Of a stretch of DNA of 6,571 nucleotides, positions 1-6,571 are shown piece after piece (the stretch's first letter is position 1; each line of letters starts with the position of its first letter). Made by a program: the position numbers and the translations under genes. The DNA is from a virus (Duplodnaviria; Heunggongvirae; Uroviricota; Caudoviricetes). The DNA is taken from IMG/VR virus record IMGVR_UViG_2563366935_000003. One strand, given 5' to 3'. The notes under the pieces were generated by a model. That model was not told where the DNA came from. It ran no database searches and saw only the letters and a list, made by a program, of their open reading frames with translations.

Positions 1-53
1 AAGCAGAAAAAGCTTATTATGCTTCCATCGGAAACGATGATCTGGCAGCCTGA
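1..53 (+). CDS. IS629 transposase OrfB, C-terminal fragment (partial at window start)
   Basis: Same frame and sequence as the C-terminus of the 296-aa OrfB at 3503-4393 (...[16 protein letters not shown]); stop TGA at 51-53. Confidence 0.85.
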   Translation, partial: AEKAYYASIGNDDLAA

Positions 54-95
54 GTTCACAGATAAAACACTCTCCAGGAAACCCGGGGCGGTTCA
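1..95 (+). mobile_element. IS629 (IS3 family) 3'-terminal fragment, truncated by the window edge; ends with the right inverted repeat ...GGAAACCCGGGGCGGTTCA
   Basis: Bases 1-95 are identical to 4341-4435 of the complete copy in this window; the terminal IR ends at 95. Confidence 0.9.
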
Positions 96-350
96 TCTAA
101 AATTGCTATACTATTCATGTTGGTTTTTCTCCACGGATTTACCGACAACCGAAGCCCTGACTGTTCCAGCAGTTGGGGCTTCACTGTTTTGATTTCTTTG
201 CCGCATCAAGCATCACTTCTGAAAACGTGCGCTTGCCACTGAATACTCTTTCTCTTCTCAATTTTTCGTTCGTGCCAAATGATTCGCCATGAACAAAATT
301 TGGTCTTAAAATGGTAATCGCAATCTCTTTGACTACTGCATCCAAGCGAA

Positions 351-503
351 TCACACCGTTACCCCCTCTCTCTTCAGGCTGTCTATCAGGCGCTTGATAA
401 CCTCTGAGTTAAACGACCTGCACTCTTCCTTTGCCCTGCTACCGATAGCATCCTTTAACGACTGCGGCATCCTTACCAAAATCTTACTTATTTCTTTCTC
501 CAT
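351..503 (-). CDS. Arc-like ribbon-helix-helix transcriptional repressor (50 aa)
   Basis: Translation MEKEISKILVRMPQSLKDAIGSRAKEECRSFNSEVIKRLIDSLKREGVTV follows the Arc/MetJ RHH pattern (basic beta-strand RMP..L, then ..GRS.NSE.. helix), recalled resemblance to P22 Arc. ATG at 503 is preceded by a strong SD (GGAGGG, about 5-nt spacing); the longer track ORF to 539 begins at a TTG with no RBS. Confidence 0.7.
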   Translation of the reverse strand: MEKEISKILVRMPQSLKDAIGSRAKEECRSFNSEVIKRLIDSLKREGVTV

Positions 504-539
504 GTTACCCTCCACGCAAACAACTCTTTTCGAATACAA

Positions 540-568
540 AAGATAGCAAAGTGAGTATATCTAGTCAA
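540..568 (-). promoter_or_regulatory. Candidate sigma70 promoter for the Arc-like gene: -35 TTGACT (568-563), 17-nt spacer, -10 TATCTT (545-540)
   Basis: Read from the minus strand; hexamers close to consensus with canonical spacing, about 35 nt upstream of the start codon at 503; the -10 overlaps the left arm of the inverted repeat. Confidence 0.35.
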
Positions 569-593
569 AATTTTTTTGCATACACTTTGCTAT
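543..593. promoter_or_regulatory. Perfect 11-bp inverted repeat ATAGCAAAGTG (543-553) / CACTTTGCTAT (583-593), candidate operator in the divergent intergenic region
   Basis: Exact reverse complements separated by 29 bp, centred between two divergent RHH repressor genes; RHH repressors of this type bind palindromic operators. Confidence 0.45.
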
Positions 594-617
594 CAAATTG
601 AATACCAAAGGTGTTAT

Positions 618-866
618 ATGGCAAAGGGTGTGTCAATTTCTCCAACTACGGTAAGAATCCCTGAATCTTTACGCGAGGCTCTTGCTGTCAGAGCATCAAA
701 AAATGGTCGCTCTGTTAACTCCGAGATCGTCATGATTTTGCAAGCCGCGATTGATGAAGATAGGTCGCCAAAGTCAGTTGAGTCATTTGCTCAGCAAGAA
801 GCTGATAAATTCAAAGAGGCGCTACTTGAGACGCTAAAGACCATGTATGCTAAGGATGAAAAATAA
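618..866 (+). CDS. Mnt-like ribbon-helix-helix repressor (82 aa) with C-terminal helical extension
   Basis: MAKGVSISPTTVRIPESLREALAVRASKNGRSVNSEIVMILQAAI... carries the RHH core (NGRSVNSE) and a C-terminal helical tail (FKEALLETLKTMYAKDEK) like the Mnt tetramerisation helix; length matches Mnt (about 83 aa). ATG at 618; the upstream track extension starts at TTG. Stop overlaps the next start (TAATG). Confidence 0.7.
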   Translation: MAKGVSISPTTVRIPESLREALAVRASKNGRSVNSEIVMILQAAIDEDRSPKSVESFAQQEADKFKEALLETLKTMYAKDEK

Positions 867-1402
867 TGCTGCACACAATTCATTTCTTATGCCCTGTTAA
901 CACTGCCACTGTTGGGCAACTTCAGAACCACTGTCTCACCGCATTATCTCAAGGCGCAACTGAATTAAATATCCATATATCAAGTCAGGGAGGGGAAACT
1001 GCTGCTGGCTTTACTGCGTATAACTTTCTTAAGTCACTCCCTGTTACCGTTAGAACTCACAACATAAGCAATGTTGAATCCATAGCTAATATCGTTTTCC
1101 TGGCTGGCTCAGAACGTTTCGCAAACCCATTATCAAGATTCCTGTTACATCCTCTATTATGGTGCTTTGCCTCCCCAGCCGCCGACCATGCCAGATTGAG
1201 AGAGTACGGGAAATGCCTCGATAACGATCTTGATCGCTTCGTTGAGACGTTCAATATCGACATCGGAACCCATATTAGGTGGGCATCCCTGATAGCAGAC
1301 TCGACCATTTTGGATGCTAACAAGGCTCTTGAGCATGGCATAATTAATTCCATAAAAACTGCAAGGCTGGCATCCAATCAGGCAAACTGGTGGGTTGTTT
1401 GA
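866..1402 (+). CDS. ClpP-family (peptidase S14-like) serine protease paralog, 178 aa
   Basis: Collinear with ClpP core motifs: ISSQGG vs INSPGG, a Ser 29 residues after the GG (VESIA vs GQAASMG), His in RFLLHPL vs RVMIHQP, Asp in ADSTI vs ERDRF, and C-terminal EHGIINSI vs EYGLVDSI. Translationally coupled to the Mnt-like gene. Confidence 0.65.
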   Translation: MLHTIHFLCPVNTATVGQLQNHCLTALSQGATELNIHISSQGGETAAGFTAYNFLKSLPVTVRTHNISNVESIANIVFLAGSERFANPLSRFLLHPLLWCFASPAADHARLREYGKCLDNDLDRFVETFNIDIGTHIRWASLIADSTILDANKALEHGIINSIKTARLASNQANWWVV

Positions 1403-1427
1403 TGGGTAAATCATGATTACTCCTTAT

Positions 1428-1453
1428 AAAAAACCCACCTGACGGTGGGTTTA
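1428..1453. terminator. Bidirectional rho-independent terminator between convergent genes
   Basis: Perfect 9-bp stem AAACCCACC (1431-1439) / GGTGGGTTT (1444-1452) with loop TGAC, A-run upstream and T-run downstream; lies between the 3' ends of the ClpP-like gene (+) and the YafO-like gene (-). Confidence 0.6.
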
Positions 1454-1900
1454 GTCAAACATAGTGTTTCTAAAGTCTCTCGCATACCCTGCTAACACTC
1501 TCATTCTATTATGATTGTTAGCAGACATGTGAGCTACAGGATGAAAAAGAGCAATCAATGAATACCTGTTCTCATCAAAAAGATTTTGTGCATAAACGAG
1601 AGCGGTATTGGATGTTTTATGCCACTGCAACTTTTGCGGTGTGCTGATATCTGTGCCATTTTTTATTGGCTCAAATTTATTTTCACCAATTGCTAAATGA
1701 AGGTGCATAAGGCCTGCATCTTCAATATCAGGAGGTCGATGATAAGAGGTGTCTCTGCCAAAATAGCTGGGCAACGTTCCCGTAGACTTGTAGATGATAA
1801 AATCATCTACAAGTGTTTGTTTTAAATCAGGAAACTCAACAAAAACCGGGGAGAAAAAATAGTCAAAACTATCCTGATTATATTCCACGGTTACTTGCAT
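1451..1900 (-). CDS. YafO-family toxin-like protein (putative ribosome-dependent mRNA interferase), 149 aa
   Basis: Motifs DFIIYKSTGTLPSYFGRD, HLHLA, ALVYAQNLFDE, SLIALFHP and the C-terminal ANNHNRM...FR align collinearly with my recollection of E. coli YafO. ATG at 1900 with SD GAGGT; 8 nt downstream of the preceding gene's stop. Confidence 0.55.
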   Translation of the reverse strand: MQVTVEYNQDSFDYFFSPVFVEFPDLKQTLVDDFIIYKSTGTLPSYFGRDTSYHRPPDIEDAGLMHLHLAIGENKFEPIKNGTDISTPQKLQWHKTSNTALVYAQNLFDENRYSLIALFHPVAHMSANNHNRMRVLAGYARDFRNTMFD

Positions 1901-1908
1901 GTTTTACC

Positions 1909-2475
1909 TCAGTGGAAGTTACCAGAGTGAAACACACGAGTCCCGTGCTCAGCAAGCGCACGCAAACCAGCCATATCTACGGAACTATCAAAAACAACCG
2001 GAACACATGAGCGTTGTTTAATAAGACTATTCAGGTTGGTTACGGCAGATCTGGCATCAGCAACAACGATATAGATATCTCTTGCGATCTCTTTAAAATC
2101 AGCAGAAGCTTCTTTGAATACCGATTTCATTGCCCCTTCAAGTCCTCTCAATTGATGCTCTATCAATCGAGACTTTTCTGGTTCAATGATAGACAACACA
2201 TTGTCTACATTCTCATCGGTAGCGTTTGCAAGAACACGATAAGCGTATTTCAGCATTCGAGACAATTCTTTAATCGAAGACACCGCCTCATGAAGCTCAT
2301 CATTAGCCCGTTCACTGCTGAATGAGGATTGATGGTAAGCGTGCTGAACGTTATCAGTAACAACCACCTCACAACTGAACGCAGAAGCTTGCTGTAATAG
2401 CAAACCTATTGCGACTCCAGCTTTGGCAGCGTTCAAGCTAAACATTTCATCAATCCCATTAGTCTCATTGCTCAT
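1909..2475 (-). CDS. Hypothetical protein (188 aa), first gene of the operon with the YafO-like toxin; candidate non-canonical antitoxin or partner
   Basis: ATG at 2475 preceded by a near-perfect SD (AAGAAGGAGG); the track ORF start at 2505 is a TTG without RBS. No recognisable domain; sequence composition suggests a mostly helical soluble protein. Confidence 0.6.
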   Translation of the reverse strand: MSNETNGIDEMFSLNAAKAGVAIGLLLQQASAFSCEVVVTDNVQHAYHQSSFSSERANDELHEAVSSIKELSRMLKYAYRVLANATDENVDNVLSIIEPEKSRLIEHQLRGLEGAMKSVFKEASADFKEIARDIYIVVADARSAVTNLNSLIKQRSCVPVVFDSSVDMAGLRALAEHGTRVFHSGNFH

Positions 2476-2650
2476 ACAAACCTCCTTCTTATCGGAGATT
2501 ATCAATAGCTATGCATCCATTGAATACACGCTATGCGCAATAAGTTTACGTCACGTGATATCATTATGCAACCACCGTTCTATCACCGACTAACTTTACT
2601 CCCACTCCTATACATCATCTGGTATCCTGCGCAAAACTAAGGAGGTTGGT

Positions 2651-3001
2651 GTGAATGCTCAGTCTGTCATCATGGTTTTCCTTGGGCTGATTGTCGCAAA
2701 ACTATATCCAGACTGGTGGAAAGGGGCATTAGCTACTGTCGCCATCTATTTGCTTTTATCCATCGTTAAGCGATCACTCGCTGAGACCGTAAATCAAGCA
2801 AAACGTTTCTCATTTAAGAGTTTAATAAACTATGTTACTGGGCTTATTTTTTGCCTTTCAATTCTGATCGCTTCGGCTTTTTTGCCCGTATCAATAGCTA
2901 ATTTTTTTGGCGCACCATATGAGGTAGGTTATCTATTCTCTGTTTCCTGTCTTGCCATTGCTCTTCTTTACCTGTGGACGAGATCAAAGAATAAAAATTA
3001 G
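2651..3001 (+). CDS. Small polytopic inner-membrane protein (116 aa, about 4 predicted TM helices), function unknown
   Basis: GTG start 5 nt after a strong SD (TAAGGAGG, 2638-2645); four hydrophobic stretches (SVIMVFLGLIVAKL, ALATVAIYLLLSIV, LINYVTGLIFCLSILIASAFL, GYLFSVSCLAIALLYLW) and a basic C-terminus. Confidence 0.6.
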   Translation: MNAQSVIMVFLGLIVAKLYPDWWKGALATVAIYLLLSIVKRSLAETVNQAKRFSFKSLINYVTGLIFCLSILIASAFLPVSIANFFGAPYEVGYLFSVSCLAIALLYLWTRSKNKN

Positions 3002-3125
3002 CCATCCGTGGCTGCCAGTTATTGAGCTTCTTTTTGTGATGCCTGTGCGACTCTGGTGAGCGATTGTGTGACCGTACTGATCGCTCTGTCATATGCTGTG
3101 CTACCTTTTGGCGTATTTGCCAGAC

Positions 3126-3150
3126 TGAACCGCCCCGGGAATCCTGGAGA
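3126..3150. repeat. IS629 left terminal inverted repeat
   Basis: TGAACCGCCCCGGGAATCCTGGAGA is an imperfect inverted match to the right end at 4411-4435. Confidence 0.8.
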
Positions 3151-3179
3151 CTAAACTTCCTGAGAAAGAGGTAAACAGG

Positions 3180-3506
3180 ATGACTAAAAATACTCGTTTT
3201 TCCCCCGAAGTCCGTCAACGGGCAGTCCGTATGGTTCTGGAAAGTCAGAGCGAATATGACTCACAATGGGCGACAATTTGTTCCATTGCTCCAAAGATTG
3301 GCTGTACGCCGGAGACTCTGCGTGTCTGGGTTCGCCAGCATGAGCGGGATACCGGGGGCGGTGATGGAGGGCTCACCACCGCTGAACGTCAGCGTCTGAA
3401 AGAGCTGGAACGTGAAAAGCGTGAACTGCGCCGCAGTAACGATATCCTTCGCCAGGCTTCCGCTTATTTTGCGAAGGCGGAGTTCGACCGCCTCTGGAAA
3501 AAATGA
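3180..3506 (+). CDS. IS629 OrfA (108 aa; helix-turn-helix / leucine-zipper transposase subunit)
   Basis: [65 protein letters not shown]... is recognised as IS629/IS1203 OrfA; SD AGAGG upstream of the ATG. Confidence 0.9.
3497..3503 (+). other. Candidate programmed -1 ribosomal frameshift site (A-run GAAAAAA) at the OrfA/OrfB overlap
   Basis: OrfB lies in the -1 frame relative to OrfA and overlaps it by 4 nt; six consecutive A (3498-3503) sit in the last two OrfA codons. IS3-family elements make an OrfAB fusion transposase by -1 slippage on A-rich heptamers. Confidence 0.4.
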
Positions 3507-4393
3507 TGCCACTGCTGGATAAGCTGCGTGAGCAGTACGGGGTCGGACCGCTATGCAGCGAACTGCATATTGCCCCGTCAACGTATTACCACTGTCAGCA
3601 ACAGCGACATCATCCGGATAAACGCAGTGCCCGTGCGCAGCGCGATGACTGGCTGAAGAAAGAGATACAGCGCGTATACGATGAAAATCACAAGGTATAC
3701 GGTGTGCGTAAAGTCTGGCGTCAGTTGTTACGGGAAGGTATCAGAGTGGCCAGATGCACTGTGGCACGTCTCATGGCGGTTATGGGACTTGCCGGTGTTC
3801 TCCGGGGTAAAAAGGTCCGTACGACCATCAGCCGGAAAGCCGTTGCCGCAGGCGACCGCGTAAACCGTCAGTTCGTGGCAGAACGACCTGACCAGCTGTG
3901 GGTGGCTGATTTTACTTACGTCAGCACATGGCGGGGCTTCGTCTATGTGGCGTTCATCATTGATGTGTTTGCCGGATACATCGTGGGGTGGCGGGTCTCA
4001 TCGTCCATGGAAACGACATTCGTGCTGGATGCACTGGAGCAGGCGTTATGGGCCCGTCGACCGTCCGGCACGGTCCATCACAGTGATAAAGGTTCTCAGT
4101 ATGTATCGCTGGCCTACACACAGCGGCTTAAGGAAGCCGGATTACTGGCATCAACAGGAAGTACAGGCGACTCGTATGACAACGCGATGGCGGAGAGCAT
4201 CAATGGTCTTTACAAAGCGGAGGTAATACACCGTAAGAGCTGGAAAAACCGTGCAGAAGTGGAACTGGCCACACTCACGTGGGTGGACTGGTATAACAAT
4301 CGACGATTGCTGGAAAGGCTGGGCCATACTCCTCCGGCAGAAGCAGAAAAAGCTTATTATGCTTCCATCGGAAACGATGATCTGGCAGCCTGA
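3503..4393 (+). CDS. IS629 OrfB (296 aa; DDE/RNase H-fold transposase catalytic domain)
   Basis: [30 protein letters not shown]... recognised as IS629 OrfB; IS3-family catalytic-core signatures are visible ([24 protein letters not shown]). Confidence 0.9.
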
Positions 4394-4410
4394 GTTCACA
4401 GATAAAACAC

Positions 4411-4435
4411 TCTCCAGGAAACCCGGGGCGGTTCA
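4411..4435. repeat. IS629 right terminal inverted repeat
   Basis: Reverse complement TGAACCGCCCCGGGTTTCCTGGAGA matches the left end. Confidence 0.8.
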
Positions 4436-5593
4436 CATGATGATTGAGTCTGCGTCCTGTTCAATGCTTCCTGAATCACGCAAATCTGCGTTTGTCGGGC
4501 GTTTGTTTGGTCGCTTCTCAACATCGCGTGAAAGCTGACTCAGGGAAATAACCGGTGTTTTCAGGTCTTTCGCCATCGCCTTCAGGCTTCCGGAGATGTG
4601 AGCAATTGCGAGGTCGTTGCGGTCTGCTTTCGGCTTCTCAATCAGGCCAAGATAATCCGCCATGATGAGTGAGAGGTTTGGATTTTCCTGTTTGTGCCGT
4701 TCTGCGATTGAGCGTATTTCTTCGACCGATAATCGCGAGGCATCGACTACCCATACATCCAAATCTGCAAGCTGACTCATGCCGTTAGCAACACGTGCCC
4801 AGCCCTCGTCATCCATCGATGCAGGATTTCGCAGTACGCTAACCGACATCCTCCCGGCGTTGGCAATGCTTCGCTCTGCAATCTGCAATGCGCTCATTTC
4901 CATTGAGAAAATCAATACCCCGCGCCGGACGTCAGAACCAGGAATAACGCGGCTTGCAACGCCTTCGGCAATCTTCAGCGCCAGTTCGGTTTTCCCCATA
5001 CCAGGACGAGCAGCGATTATCACCAGGTCTTCCGCGTTCATCCCTCCGGTGATGGCATCAAGTTCTTCGATTCCGGTCTTCAGGGTATCGGACTCTTCTC
5101 CGTTCCTCAGACGCCTGTCAAGCGTGTCAGTGTAGTCGGTGATGATTTCCCCTAACCGTACAGGTTTAACCTCGTCACGGGGCTTTCTGATGGCTGAGAG
5201 ACGTTTTACAAGTTCATCCATCGCCTGACTCGATGCGTCGATGGTTCCGCTTTGGATTGGTTCACGCATTTCATCCATGATTTCCAGCACCAGACGGCGG
5301 TGATAGTTATCCGCGACCATTCCGGCATATCCCTTCAGGTTTGCGGCGCTCGGGCAGTTTTTGCTGGTCATCAGGATTGACGTGAAATGCTCCTCTCCGC
5401 ACGCCTCGGCAACCATCAGCGCGTCGATTAGGTTTCTGTTTCTCGCCTGCTTCCGGATAACCTCGAAGGCTTTCCGGTAGAGCGGAATTGAAAACGCTTC
5501 CGGCTCCAGCGTTGCAAGAACGTCACTGGCGGTTGGAGTTAATCCACCAATCAGCAGGCCACCGATAACGCTCGCTTCGATATCCTGTCTCAT
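4433..5593 (-). pseudogene. Phage DnaB-like replicative helicase, 3'-truncated by IS629 (about 55-60 C-terminal residues missing)
   Basis: 386-aa translation with DnaB N-terminal domain, Walker A ([10 protein letters not shown]), Walker B (LIMADYLGL) and the motif [32 protein letters not shown]. Reading frame stops only 3 codons after EQDAD, using the TGA formed by the IS629 terminus (4433-4435), where E. coli DnaB has about 55 more residues. Confidence 0.85.
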
Positions 5594-5947
5594 GCAATCC
5601 CCCTGTCTGCAAACTTCCCTTCCCGAACTCCCGTTAACGAGTCTTCTCTCAGCAGGTAATCAAAATCAGCCGTCCAGCCCGTGTCGTTGTCTCCGAAGTA
5701 AAACGGCTTGGCCTGATGCACAAACGCCCTGACATACGCTCTGAAACCGTCCACGTTTGGCGTTTTCAGTTGCGGGATGATTTTCTTCAGGCGGCGTTTT
5801 CGTTTCTCGTTGACCGCAACAGCGTGTGGCAGTCTGTCACCGACTTCGGTGTTGTAGGCGTTCAGGAAGGATTCGTAGTCGATTCGTTCTGCCTTGCGAC
5901 GTTCAGGTTTAACCTGCCCATCGCCTCCCCCATTGGGGGGTAGGGGG

Positions 5948-5975
5948 GTATTATTTATATTCTTGTTAATACCTT
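5948..5975. other. AT-rich stretch adjacent to the iterons (candidate DNA-unwinding element), next to a G/C-rich near-palindrome CCCCCATTGGGGGG (5926-5939)
   Basis: attatttatattcttgttaatacc is strongly AT-rich relative to its surroundings and lies immediately downstream of the iterons in the gene's direction, mirroring ori-lambda organisation. Confidence 0.4.
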
Positions 5976-5980
5976 CTTGT

Positions 5981-6110
5981 TCATGATGTGCGGTTGTTTG
6001 TGCGGCTTCATGTGCGCTTTCATGTGCGGCATGTACGCTGAAAGCCGCGCTATTGCTGGCTTCATCATGTGCGGCATCATGTGCGGTTGTTTGTGCGGCT
6101 TCATGTGCGG
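5981..6110. repeat. Iteron array (candidate phage replication origin): about 8 copies of a 12-bp unit, consensus yTTCATGTGCGG, in two clusters; includes an exact 31-bp duplication (5986-6016 and 6079-6109)
   Basis: Directly visible tandem periodicity: tgtgcggttgtt / tgtgcggcttca / tgtgcgctttca / tgtgcggcatgt ... catgtgcggcatca / tgtgcggttgtt / tgtgcggcttca / tgtgcggg. Lies inside the initiator gene, as ori-lambda lies inside O. Confidence 0.6.
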
Positions 6111-6354
6111 GTAAATTGTCCATTTTTTGAGCATATTCATGGTAATTTGTGATGGTTATCACACGGCCTTTTTGCTTCTCTCCATCAATGGAGATCATCC
6201 CCTCTTTCACAAAAACCTGAAGCATCCGCTCAACCTGATCACGGCTTGCTGGCTTGCCATGTCTGTCGCATAACTGAAGACCTAAATCAGCTGCTGTCAC
6301 AACCAGTTGACCGGGTTGCAGATGCCATTCATGACCTTTGAAATTCGCTTTGTA

Positions 6355-6571
6355 TGAACCGCCCCGGGTTTCCTGGAGAGTGTTTTATCTGTGAACTCAG
6401 GCTGCCAGATCATCGTTTCCGATGGAAGCATAATAAGCTTTTTCTGCTTCTGCCGGAGGAGTATGGCCCAGCCTTTCCAGCAATCGTCGATTGTTATACC
6501 AGTCCACCCACGTGAGTGTGGCCAGTTCCACTTCTGCACGGTTTTTCCAGCTCTTACGGTGTATTACCTCC
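6355..6571 (-). mobile_element. IS629 3'-terminal fragment in inverted orientation, truncated by the window edge
   Basis: 6355-6571 is the exact reverse complement of 4219-4435 of the complete copy; the terminal IR begins at 6355 (TGAACCGCCCCGGGTTTCC...). Confidence 0.9.
6397..6571 (-). CDS. IS629 transposase OrfB, C-terminal fragment (minus strand, partial at window end)
   Basis: Reverse complement is identical to the 3' end of OrfB; stop codon is at 6397-6399 on the minus strand. Confidence 0.85.
   Translation of the reverse strand, partial: EVIHRKSWKNRAEVELATLTWVDWYNNRRLLERLGHTPPAEAEKAYYASIGNDDLAA

Follow-up and report, generated by a model that had tools for sequence, protein, structure and literature searches.

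The closest characterized relative of the protein described here is PpClpP1 of Pseudomonas plecoglossicida (PMC12900304, PLoS Pathog 2026), a ClpP whose N-terminal truncation removes the axial loops and leaves a pore of 42.7 Å. By itself PpClpP1 forms a homo-14-mer without ClpX binding, with a peptidase activity 13-fold below that of the canonical paralogue, and together with canonical ClpP it forms a hetero-14-mer with raised peptidase activity and ClpX-dependent degradation. Ser and His of its 'triad' (Ser73-His96-Pro) are essential and the third residue is dispensable. According to the same paper, accessory ClpPs such as P. aeruginosa ClpP2 and Listeria ClpP1 are poorly active, do not dock ClpX and act via the housekeeping ClpP ring; phages go unmentioned in it. 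Here, we analyzed a stretch of 6,571 nucleotides (nt) from a tailed virus (IMG/VR record IMGVR_UViG_2563366935_000003; hereafter the window), in which an earlier note had proposed a dedicated, undescribed module made of a Mnt-like ribbon-helix-helix (RHH) repressor and a short ClpP-family protease. Both open reading frames (ORFs) are present as described, at 618-866 (82 amino acids, aa) and 866-1402 (178 aa).

In the immI (second immunity) region of phage P22, mnt is divergent from arc-ant and located between gene 16 and gene 9, and in P22 lysogens Mnt holds the antirepressor promoter shut. The P22 sieA/orf59a/mnt segment is expressed from the prophage (PMC10883804). The bor gene of lambda is likewise expressed in lysogens. 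We propose that the 178-aa gene is a lysogen-expressed cargo ('moron') gene riding the mnt transcript and encoding a peptidase of the PpClpP1 type, a reading to which we give a probability of roughly 0.6.

The 178-aa protein matches Pfam CLP_protease (PF00574) with 44.4 bits (cut-off 20.2; E 2.2e-11), as expected from its earlier assignment to the ClpP family. The match covers residues 24-165 on profile positions 37-180, and the protein begins at approximately position 26-37 of the ClpP models, confirming that ~30 canonical N-terminal residues are missing. These include the axial loops and helix involved in pore gating and in contact with ClpX/ClpA; the PpClpP1 structure (9uxt) is truncated likewise. 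The AlphaFold model (predicted local distance difference test, pLDDT, 91.4) superposes on the ClpP structures of E. coli, S. aureus and others with template modelling (TM) scores of 0.82-0.85 (~1e-13, 20% identity). The closest structure by a wide margin is 9uxt (Foldseek E 1.8e-22, TM 0.93, 38% identity), and a profile of the family matched 9uxt at E 3.1e-51 over residues 3-180, versus ~1e-13 for canonical ClpPs. The protein is thus not without a characterized counterpart, a relative having been solved and assayed in 2026 (PMC12900304). With canonical ClpP (MEROPS S14; E. coli 1yg6) it shares the fold (TM 0.82-0.84) and the Ser and His positions, whereas identity is only ~20%, the axial loops and the triad Asp are lacking, and the gene does not adjoin clpX.

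A homologue search retrieved 68 proteins, 178-200 aa long, from Enterobacterales and Chromobacterium. The NCBIfam equivalog and subfamily models for ClpP gave 19-40 bits against cut-offs of 228-361, and a fold search in BFVD returned generic ClpP-like matches with no closer viral relative. Searching 1.84 billion representatives with the family profile yielded 230 clusters (defined at 50% identity) at E<=1e-30, compared to 3,560 at 1e-10, indicating a discrete family that is distinct from the bulk of ClpP. Overall, the 178-aa protein very probably belongs to the PpClpP1-type short ClpP family. The ratio of nonsynonymous to synonymous substitution rates (dN/dS), ~0.08 relative to the Pectobacterium copy, shows purifying selection on the gene.

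Conservation was judged on an alignment of 28 homologues, in which Ser72, His95, G42/G43, N66, R84, R91, E113, D121 and R124 are invariant and the C-terminal motif NWWV(T)C is conserved. Ser72 lies in NVESIA (nt 1079-1081) and His95 in LLHPL (nt 1148-1150). Of the Ser, His and Asp positions said earlier to align with those of ClpP, the first two are therefore borne out (28/28) and the Asp is not: the canonical position is occupied by Ser146 here and by Ala in most relatives, and the neighbouring Asp145 is not conserved. In the alignment with canonical ClpP, the Asp-bearing stretch (rdf) appears as an insertion relative to the profile of the short family. Asn162 (GIINSI) was considered as the counterpart of the triad Asp and rejected, given that the canonical Asp lies earlier in the sequence.

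PpClpP1 and the window protein are alike in length (183 and 178 aa), in their N-terminal truncation and in a similar W-containing C-terminal tail. Ser73 and His96 of PpClpP1 align with Ser72 and His95, and the third position is not Asp in either protein, being Pro in PpClpP1, Ser146 in the window protein and Ala in most relatives (the 'Pro151' of the paper is position 150 when counted on the 9uxt chain, and we took it as the Pro of the AYPRIL motif). Since the third residue of PpClpP1 is dispensable, the missing Asp does not preclude activity in the window protein. The two differ in genomic setting, PpClpP1 being chromosomal in pseudomonads beside KGG/CsbD stress genes whereas the window gene is phage-borne. 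Moreover, the oligomer, activity and host-ClpP partnership of PpClpP1 were measured, whereas we infer those of the window protein. The Pseudomonas/Azotobacter subfamily comprises 213 matches, chromosomal at the loci examined and located beside small KGG/CsbD-type general-stress genes; these flanks hint at a stress-related role that PMC12900304 does not discuss. The idea that PpClpP1 is itself prophage-borne was considered and rejected, its locus being chromosomal.

ClpP-like proteins of phages may also be head-maturation (prohead) proteases, and the window gene could in principle be one displaced from its capsid cluster. Its best PHROG match is indeed phrog_94 'head maturation protease' (7e-21), covering only positions 110-254 of 622, NF045542 (ClpP-related head-maturation protease) is matched at 5e-13, and one phage record carries a head-maturation annotation. 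This similarity is remote and runs across the ClpP core, and the NF045542 score (49.3 bits) is far below the cut-off of 120. The window protein also differs from these proteases in position and strand and by the absence of a C-terminal extension, the ClpP-like phage proteases found in BFVD being 220-520 aa long; it is most closely related to a ClpP paralogue of bacteria. Across more than 100 loci, family members never sit beside portal, scaffold or capsid genes on their strand, and P22-type heads are known to mature without a protease. We therefore agree with the earlier rejection of this role on the basis of score, position and strand, and consider it extremely improbable.

The 82-aa protein, correctly described as Mnt-like, belongs with the Arc family in Pfam (Table 1) and also matches the FitA-like RHH model (2.1e-8). 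Among solved structures, P22 Mnt matches it best (1mnt, E 2.3e-6), with residues 12-73 aligned, so that the alignment reaches from the RHH domain into the C-terminal region. The Mnt tetramerization domain (PF11423, Repressor_Mnt) is precomputed for the Pectobacterium orthologue and was unreported in the Pfam scan of the window protein. In PADLOC-DB 2.0, the scan of seven local proteins gave nothing usable, with no match for the 178-aa protein and a chance-level BrxA match (E 0.026) for the 82-aa one. The divergent gene encodes a 50-aa protein whose best solved relatives are Arc repressors and which RefSeq labels an Arc family protein. The region between the two genes contains a perfect 12-nt inverted repeat (542-553/583-594), a candidate operator by analogy with P22 Pant/Pmnt, and the consensus scan placed a leftward promoter-like site from 568 to 540. 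We are highly confident that the 82-aa gene is the mnt of a P22-type Arc/Ant/Mnt switch. The RHH partner of the supposed dedicated module is thus the Mnt of a complete switch with a target of its own.

The one-base TAATG overlap reported for the two genes is confirmed: the mnt stop codon (TAA, 864-866) shares a base with the start codon of the ClpP-like gene (ATG, 866-868), and AAGGA is found at 852-856, inside mnt and 9 nt 5' of that ATG. Pectobacterium and other E. coli alleles share this junction. The ClpP-like gene would thus be translationally coupled to mnt, whose promoter it may use in P22-like phages, together with this coupling, in place of signals of its own. With such a translational fusion, production of the ClpP-like protein should accompany that of Mnt and hence take place in the lysogen. 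Downstream, the terminator that the earlier note placed directly after the gene is present as a hairpin (−23.1 kcal/mol in a 70-nt context, z = −3.7 against shuffles). It should be noted, however, that this hairpin is common to the convergent YafO-like gene and that its long U-run lies on the minus strand, indicating a bidirectional terminator-like element that is not private to the operon.

Many E. coli chromosomes contain the segment 181-3100 at 100% identity, among them those of S88, APEC O1 (avian pathogenic E. coli, APEC) and ATCC 11775. In S88 it lies within a P22-like prophage integrated beside tRNA-Arg and intS, with tailspike and acyltransferase genes at one end. Read from there, the leftward genes are those for the tailspike, Ant, a 57-aa protein and Arc, and they are followed by the rightward 82-aa and ClpP-like genes. 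Beyond these come the YafO-like and 188-aa genes leftward and the 109-aa gene rightward, then the gp16/gp20/gp7 ejection-protein genes and the remaining P22-type virion genes. As this order matches the layout of P22 immI, we read the locus as immI: it is the immI region of a defective P22-like/CUS-3-like E. coli prophage, which upholds the earlier description of the locus as immunity-region-like. It resembles P22 immI in gene order, in divergent transcription, in its position between the ejection gene 16 and the tailspike gene and in its recognizable Mnt and Arc. The difference lies in the cargo, P22 having orf59a and sieA past mnt and no ClpP-like gene, whereas the window has the ClpP-like gene, the YafO-like pair and a small membrane protein.

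In the intact relatives (the S88, Pectobacterium and Providencia loci), mnt and the ClpP-like gene also lie between the gp16 side and the tailspike side, divergent from arc-ant, and the virion genes begin 1.6 kb off on the other strand. In the window, insertion sequence (IS) damage has reduced ant to ~23 nt and gp16 to ~100 nt and has deleted all virion genes, the remnant being joined to phage replication genes. Thus the absence of portal and capsid genes nearby, on which the earlier note had relied, holds for the window itself and is an artefact of IS elements having gutted this prophage.

Of 5,426 complete E. coli genomes, 128 have the ClpP-like gene at >=95% nucleotide identity and 48 have divergent copies; the gene is present in ~3% of complete genomes, including the K1 strains S88 and APEC O1 of the extraintestinal (ExPEC) and avian pathogenic groups. 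The window mnt allele is full-length in 98 of the 5,426. Outside E. coli, the Pectobacterium copy (80% identity) lies directly downstream of Mnt in a P22-like immI with the same TAATG junction, and the Providencia copy (65%) lies downstream of Mnt in a P22-like immI with a 29-nt gap and no overlap. Elsewhere the gene stands alone. It occupies, on the opposite strand, the slot between lysis cassette and terminase (that of lambda bor) in Leclercia (75%), Serratia (72%), Klebsiella (57%), Rahnella, Enterobacter and two divergent E. coli copies; it lies within Mu-like tail genes in Pantoea and beside tail-fibre genes in Chromobacterium. In Massilia, an actinomycete metagenome-assembled genome (MAG) and Nitrosotenuis it is found in apparently non-phage DNA; the members on the Candidatus Nitrosotenuis and Actinomycetota MAGs, which are metagenome bins, show 33-48% identity. 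The stand-alone copies at 75% and 72% thus resemble the window protein more than the Mnt-linked Providencia copy does.

The earlier note's proposal that the two genes form a pair predicts their co-occurrence across prophages. We therefore surveyed IMG/VR, where 80 loci with the ClpP-like gene were split by identity to the window protein. None of the 44 copies at <=75% identity has a Mnt/Arc neighbour; by context, 26 of these loci adjoin lysis and/or terminase genes and 3 fall in Mu-like tail clusters, with 15 left unclassified. When all ORFs lying up to 2.5 kb from 15 loci were searched by phmmer with Mnt and Arc, only the Pectobacterium locus gave a match, and a search for another conserved co-directional partner in the stand-alone loci yielded only spurious ORFs and one lineage-specific 182-aa gene. 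The partners are not matched to each other either: one and the same ClpP-like gene (98-100% identical) follows no fewer than five Mnt alleles, in both P22-like and lambda-like backgrounds, and these alleles are only 40-61% identical to the window Mnt. Given that Mnt has its own job, that the ClpP-like gene is alone in most lineages and that many Mnt alleles are tolerated, mnt and the ClpP-like gene probably do not constitute an obligate two-gene system.

Some loci show how the junction varies. At two loci (L044, 4219-5589, and L042), the ClpP-like gene is preceded by a tandem stack of two or three different Mnt-family genes, three of them in one contig, and the last overlaps it by one base; the N-terminus of this last Mnt looks nearly identical to that of P22 Mnt. 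This looks like an accumulation of immI specificities in which the ClpP-like gene has retained the last place of the operon. In some strains an IS element separates mnt from the ClpP-like gene. In E. coli E10 (L030, 6769-7982), FY26 and NCTC11151, an IS3-family element lies just inside the 5' end of the ClpP-like gene and mnt is uncoupled from it; the match to the gene starts only from base 26, and RefSeq calls a longer ORF of 189 aa.

The same distribution bears on a type II toxin-antitoxin (TA) pair, in which an RHH antitoxin and autorepressor would control a protease toxin. A small RHH gene upstream, the one-base overlap and the FitA-like RHH match are what such a pair would look like. Nevertheless, the RHH protein is a full-length Mnt in the canonical Arc/Ant/Mnt arrangement, the would-be toxin is solitary in most lineages (44 of the 80 viral contigs and nearly all genome loci examined have no RHH partner) and at least five different RHH partners are tolerated. 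Moreover, a homologue was over-expressed in and purified from E. coli (PMC12900304), which argues against intrinsic toxicity. The TA pair suggested in the earlier note is largely refuted by this distribution and is, in our view, very improbable. The repressor-cleaving switch suggested beside it, in which the protease would cleave the main prophage repressor or Mnt and trigger induction, draws on the location of a protease gene in an immunity region. It fits poorly with a gene co-transcribed with a repressor that maintains lysogeny, since the protease would be present precisely when repression must hold; in addition, the locus already has the Ant antirepressor for that job, and the family also occurs outside phages. 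We regard this switch as hardly credible.

The lysogen-expressed cargo gene remains our preferred reading. In all phage contexts the ClpP-like gene lies opposite the late genes or in the immI operon that P22 expresses in the lysogen. It is this shared context, together with the lysogen expression of sieA and bor, that leads us to read the gene as cargo expressed in the lysogen. The likeness to bor is one of location, the stand-alone copies of the family occupying the bor/iss slot opposite the late genes in many lambdoid prophages. It does not extend to function, no outer-membrane or virulence role being suggested for the ClpP-like gene, and the window gene probably borrows the mnt promoter in place of one of its own.

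These slots are those of protective genes expressed in lysogens (the position past mnt is that of P22 sieA, the other that of lambdoid bor/iss), and they also speak for a single-gene anti-phage or superinfection-exclusion factor, whose ring, alone or with host ClpX/ClpA/ClpP, would destroy a protein of the incoming phage or trigger abortive infection. In one lineage, that of a divergent E. coli copy, a TIR-domain gene and an Abi-like/HEPN-like neighbour add to this. On the other side, the argument from the slots is circumstantial, no PADLOC model matches, the literature searches found no report, and the chromosomal members of Pseudomonas/Azotobacter are located by stress genes and not in defence islands. 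We consider such a factor unlikely. The lineage in question is that of E. coli lambdoid prophages (L025, 4275-5462; L092-L099) in which the copy at 52% identity lies 79 nt downstream of a gene for a 182-aa protein with an RNKRSH (Rx4H, HEPN-like) motif and a sub-threshold Abi_2 match (E 0.042); the TIR-domain gene is located between Q and the holin gene of the same prophage.

Several observations weigh against the cargo reading. Among IMG/VR copies at >=80% identity, a Mnt-family gene is directly upstream in 34 of 36, the two exceptions being due to an insertion and a contig end. Within this one clade, mnt and the ClpP-like gene do form a real, fairly stable transcriptional arrangement; the placeable Mnt-linked loci comprise 22 P22-like ones (beside gp16) and 10 lambda-like ones. 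Moreover, a five-gene block (Ant/small gene/Arc/Mnt/ClpP-like) has moved whole between the lambda-like tail genes K and L, a mobility that is compatible with a functional tie to the antirepressor switch. Further, the hetero-oligomer with E. coli ClpP is extrapolated from a single Pseudomonas homologue, which has 38% identity and is chromosomal in a different context. When the window and three stand-alone loci were scanned for consensus promoters and terminators, the results did not exceed those for shuffled sequence, so that the stand-alone copies gained no promoter above chance; the scan also overlooked the hairpin at 1431-1452 owing to its stem-extension rule and supports no promoter conclusion. 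Lastly, our literature searches (prophage or moron ClpP, defence, hetero-oligomers, the RefSeq accession and defence surveys) found neither a description of the ClpP-like gene nor a phenotype for any phage-borne family member. Complete cassettes of Ant, small RHH, Mnt and ClpP-like genes between tail genes K and L are seen in phage PhiR12_5 (L019, 4525-6537) and in E. coli JNEC-KY177 (L026, 2617-4629), where ompC lies just past tail gene L.

The pairing and the cassette favour another explanation, namely that the peptidase is a working part of immI that is made with Mnt and removes leaky or incoming Ant or another immI protein, as a post-translational back-up shielding the prophage from accidental or in-trans induction. 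In the clade of >=80% identity the ClpP-like gene is the last gene of the mnt operon; it travelled with Ant/Arc/Mnt as a single cassette into lambda-like phages, its coupling junction is conserved from E. coli to Pectobacterium, and it stays while Mnt alleles swap or stack. However, both closer and more distant relatives have no immI genes nearby. That the window retains only ~23 nt of ant next to an intact ClpP-like gene also counts against it, weakly, because the IS events may be recent. Overall, we judge a working immI part to be quite unlikely.

If the gene is lysogen-expressed cargo, Mnt would serve as its transcriptional vehicle and not as a dedicated partner, antitoxin or substrate. The product would be a short serine peptidase with a Ser72/His95 active site, without Asp at the third position and without gating or ClpX-docking loops. 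By analogy with PpClpP1 it would assemble into ClpP-like heptameric rings, and these may form a 14-mer that is either homomeric, wide-pored and weakly active or mixed with host ClpP. The biochemistry of PpClpP1 makes ring assembly, alone or mixed with host ClpP, the likeliest mode of action. In the mixed case, the 14-mer might alter what host ClpXP/ClpAP degrades in the lysogen, or at what rate. Action through host ClpP is a tentative proposal, to which, arguing from PpClpP1, we would give somewhat less than even odds. It would also depart from the known accessory ClpPs, P. aeruginosa ClpP2 and Listeria ClpP1 being host genes whereas here the subunit would be supplied by a prophage. As for a benefit to the lysogen, the ring may retune ClpXP/ClpAP in Enterobacterales lysogens so as to guard lysogeny or exclude superinfection, which is a rather doubtful extension; antirepressors or replication proteins of incoming phages are possible targets. 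A phage-supplied subunit that reprograms a core host protease would, in P22-like phages, be wired directly to Mnt.

The features of the window are listed in Table 1. Two direct IS3-family copies flank the immI cargo island in a composite-transposon-like arrangement. Pfam and PADLOC searches gave no family for the 188-aa protein, which is far bigger than a YafN-type antitoxin; together, the YafO-like and 188-aa genes may be an atypical TA or defence pair in the slot adjoining the P22 sieA position. The 109-aa membrane protein sits roughly at the position of SieA, an inner-membrane exclusion protein of ~19 kDa (PMC10883804), and is shorter.

Table 1. Features of the window, with positions counted from its first nucleotide.
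Feature	Position	Strand	Remarks
IS3-family element, end portion	1-95		
immI cargo island	96-3125		Between the two direct IS3-family copies
Small ORF between arc and ant	181-354	-	57 aa; phrog_17642 (unknown function); WP_000620145.1 in S88
arc orthologue	351-503	-	RefSeq 50-aa protein; open frame reaches 539; Pfam Arc 9.6e-12
Divergent arc-mnt control region	540-617		78 bp
mnt orthologue	618-866	+	82-aa RHH repressor; Pfam Arc 9.5e-11
Coupling junction	852-868	+	AAGGA Shine-Dalgarno in mnt 3' end, then TAATG overlap
ClpP-like gene	866-1402	+	N-terminally short ClpP-family peptidase, very probably PpClpP1 type, 178 aa
G+C-rich hairpin	1431-1452		AAACCCACC-TGAC-GGTGGGTTT; terminator-like; starts 29 bases past ClpP-like stop
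YafO-family toxin-like gene	1451-1900	-	Pfam 3.4e-22; NCBIfam score under cut-off
188-aa protein gene	1909-2475	-	phrog_8416; precedes YafO-like gene by 8 nt
109-aa predicted membrane protein gene	2672-3001	+	Between YafO-like pair and gp16; no family match
IS3-family element, full copy	~3126-4435		
Phage dnaB-like and O-like replication genes	4433-6300	-	Joined to the prophage remnant
IS3-family element, third copy	6355-6571		Inverted

What results is a reannotation, with Mnt followed by a cargo ClpP paralogue, rather than a new system or a demonstrated new mechanism. Its novelty is a phage-borne, Mnt-coupled ClpP of the PpClpP1 type inside the known P22-type immI region. PpClpP1, so far regarded as peculiar to Pseudomonas, is now placed in a family that numbers at least 230 sequence clusters, a substantial fraction of them phage-borne. 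If the short ClpP of these phages joins or modifies the host Clp machine, prophages would alter a central host protease by donating a subunit, a route to lysogenic conversion or immunity that is undescribed as far as our literature searches reach.

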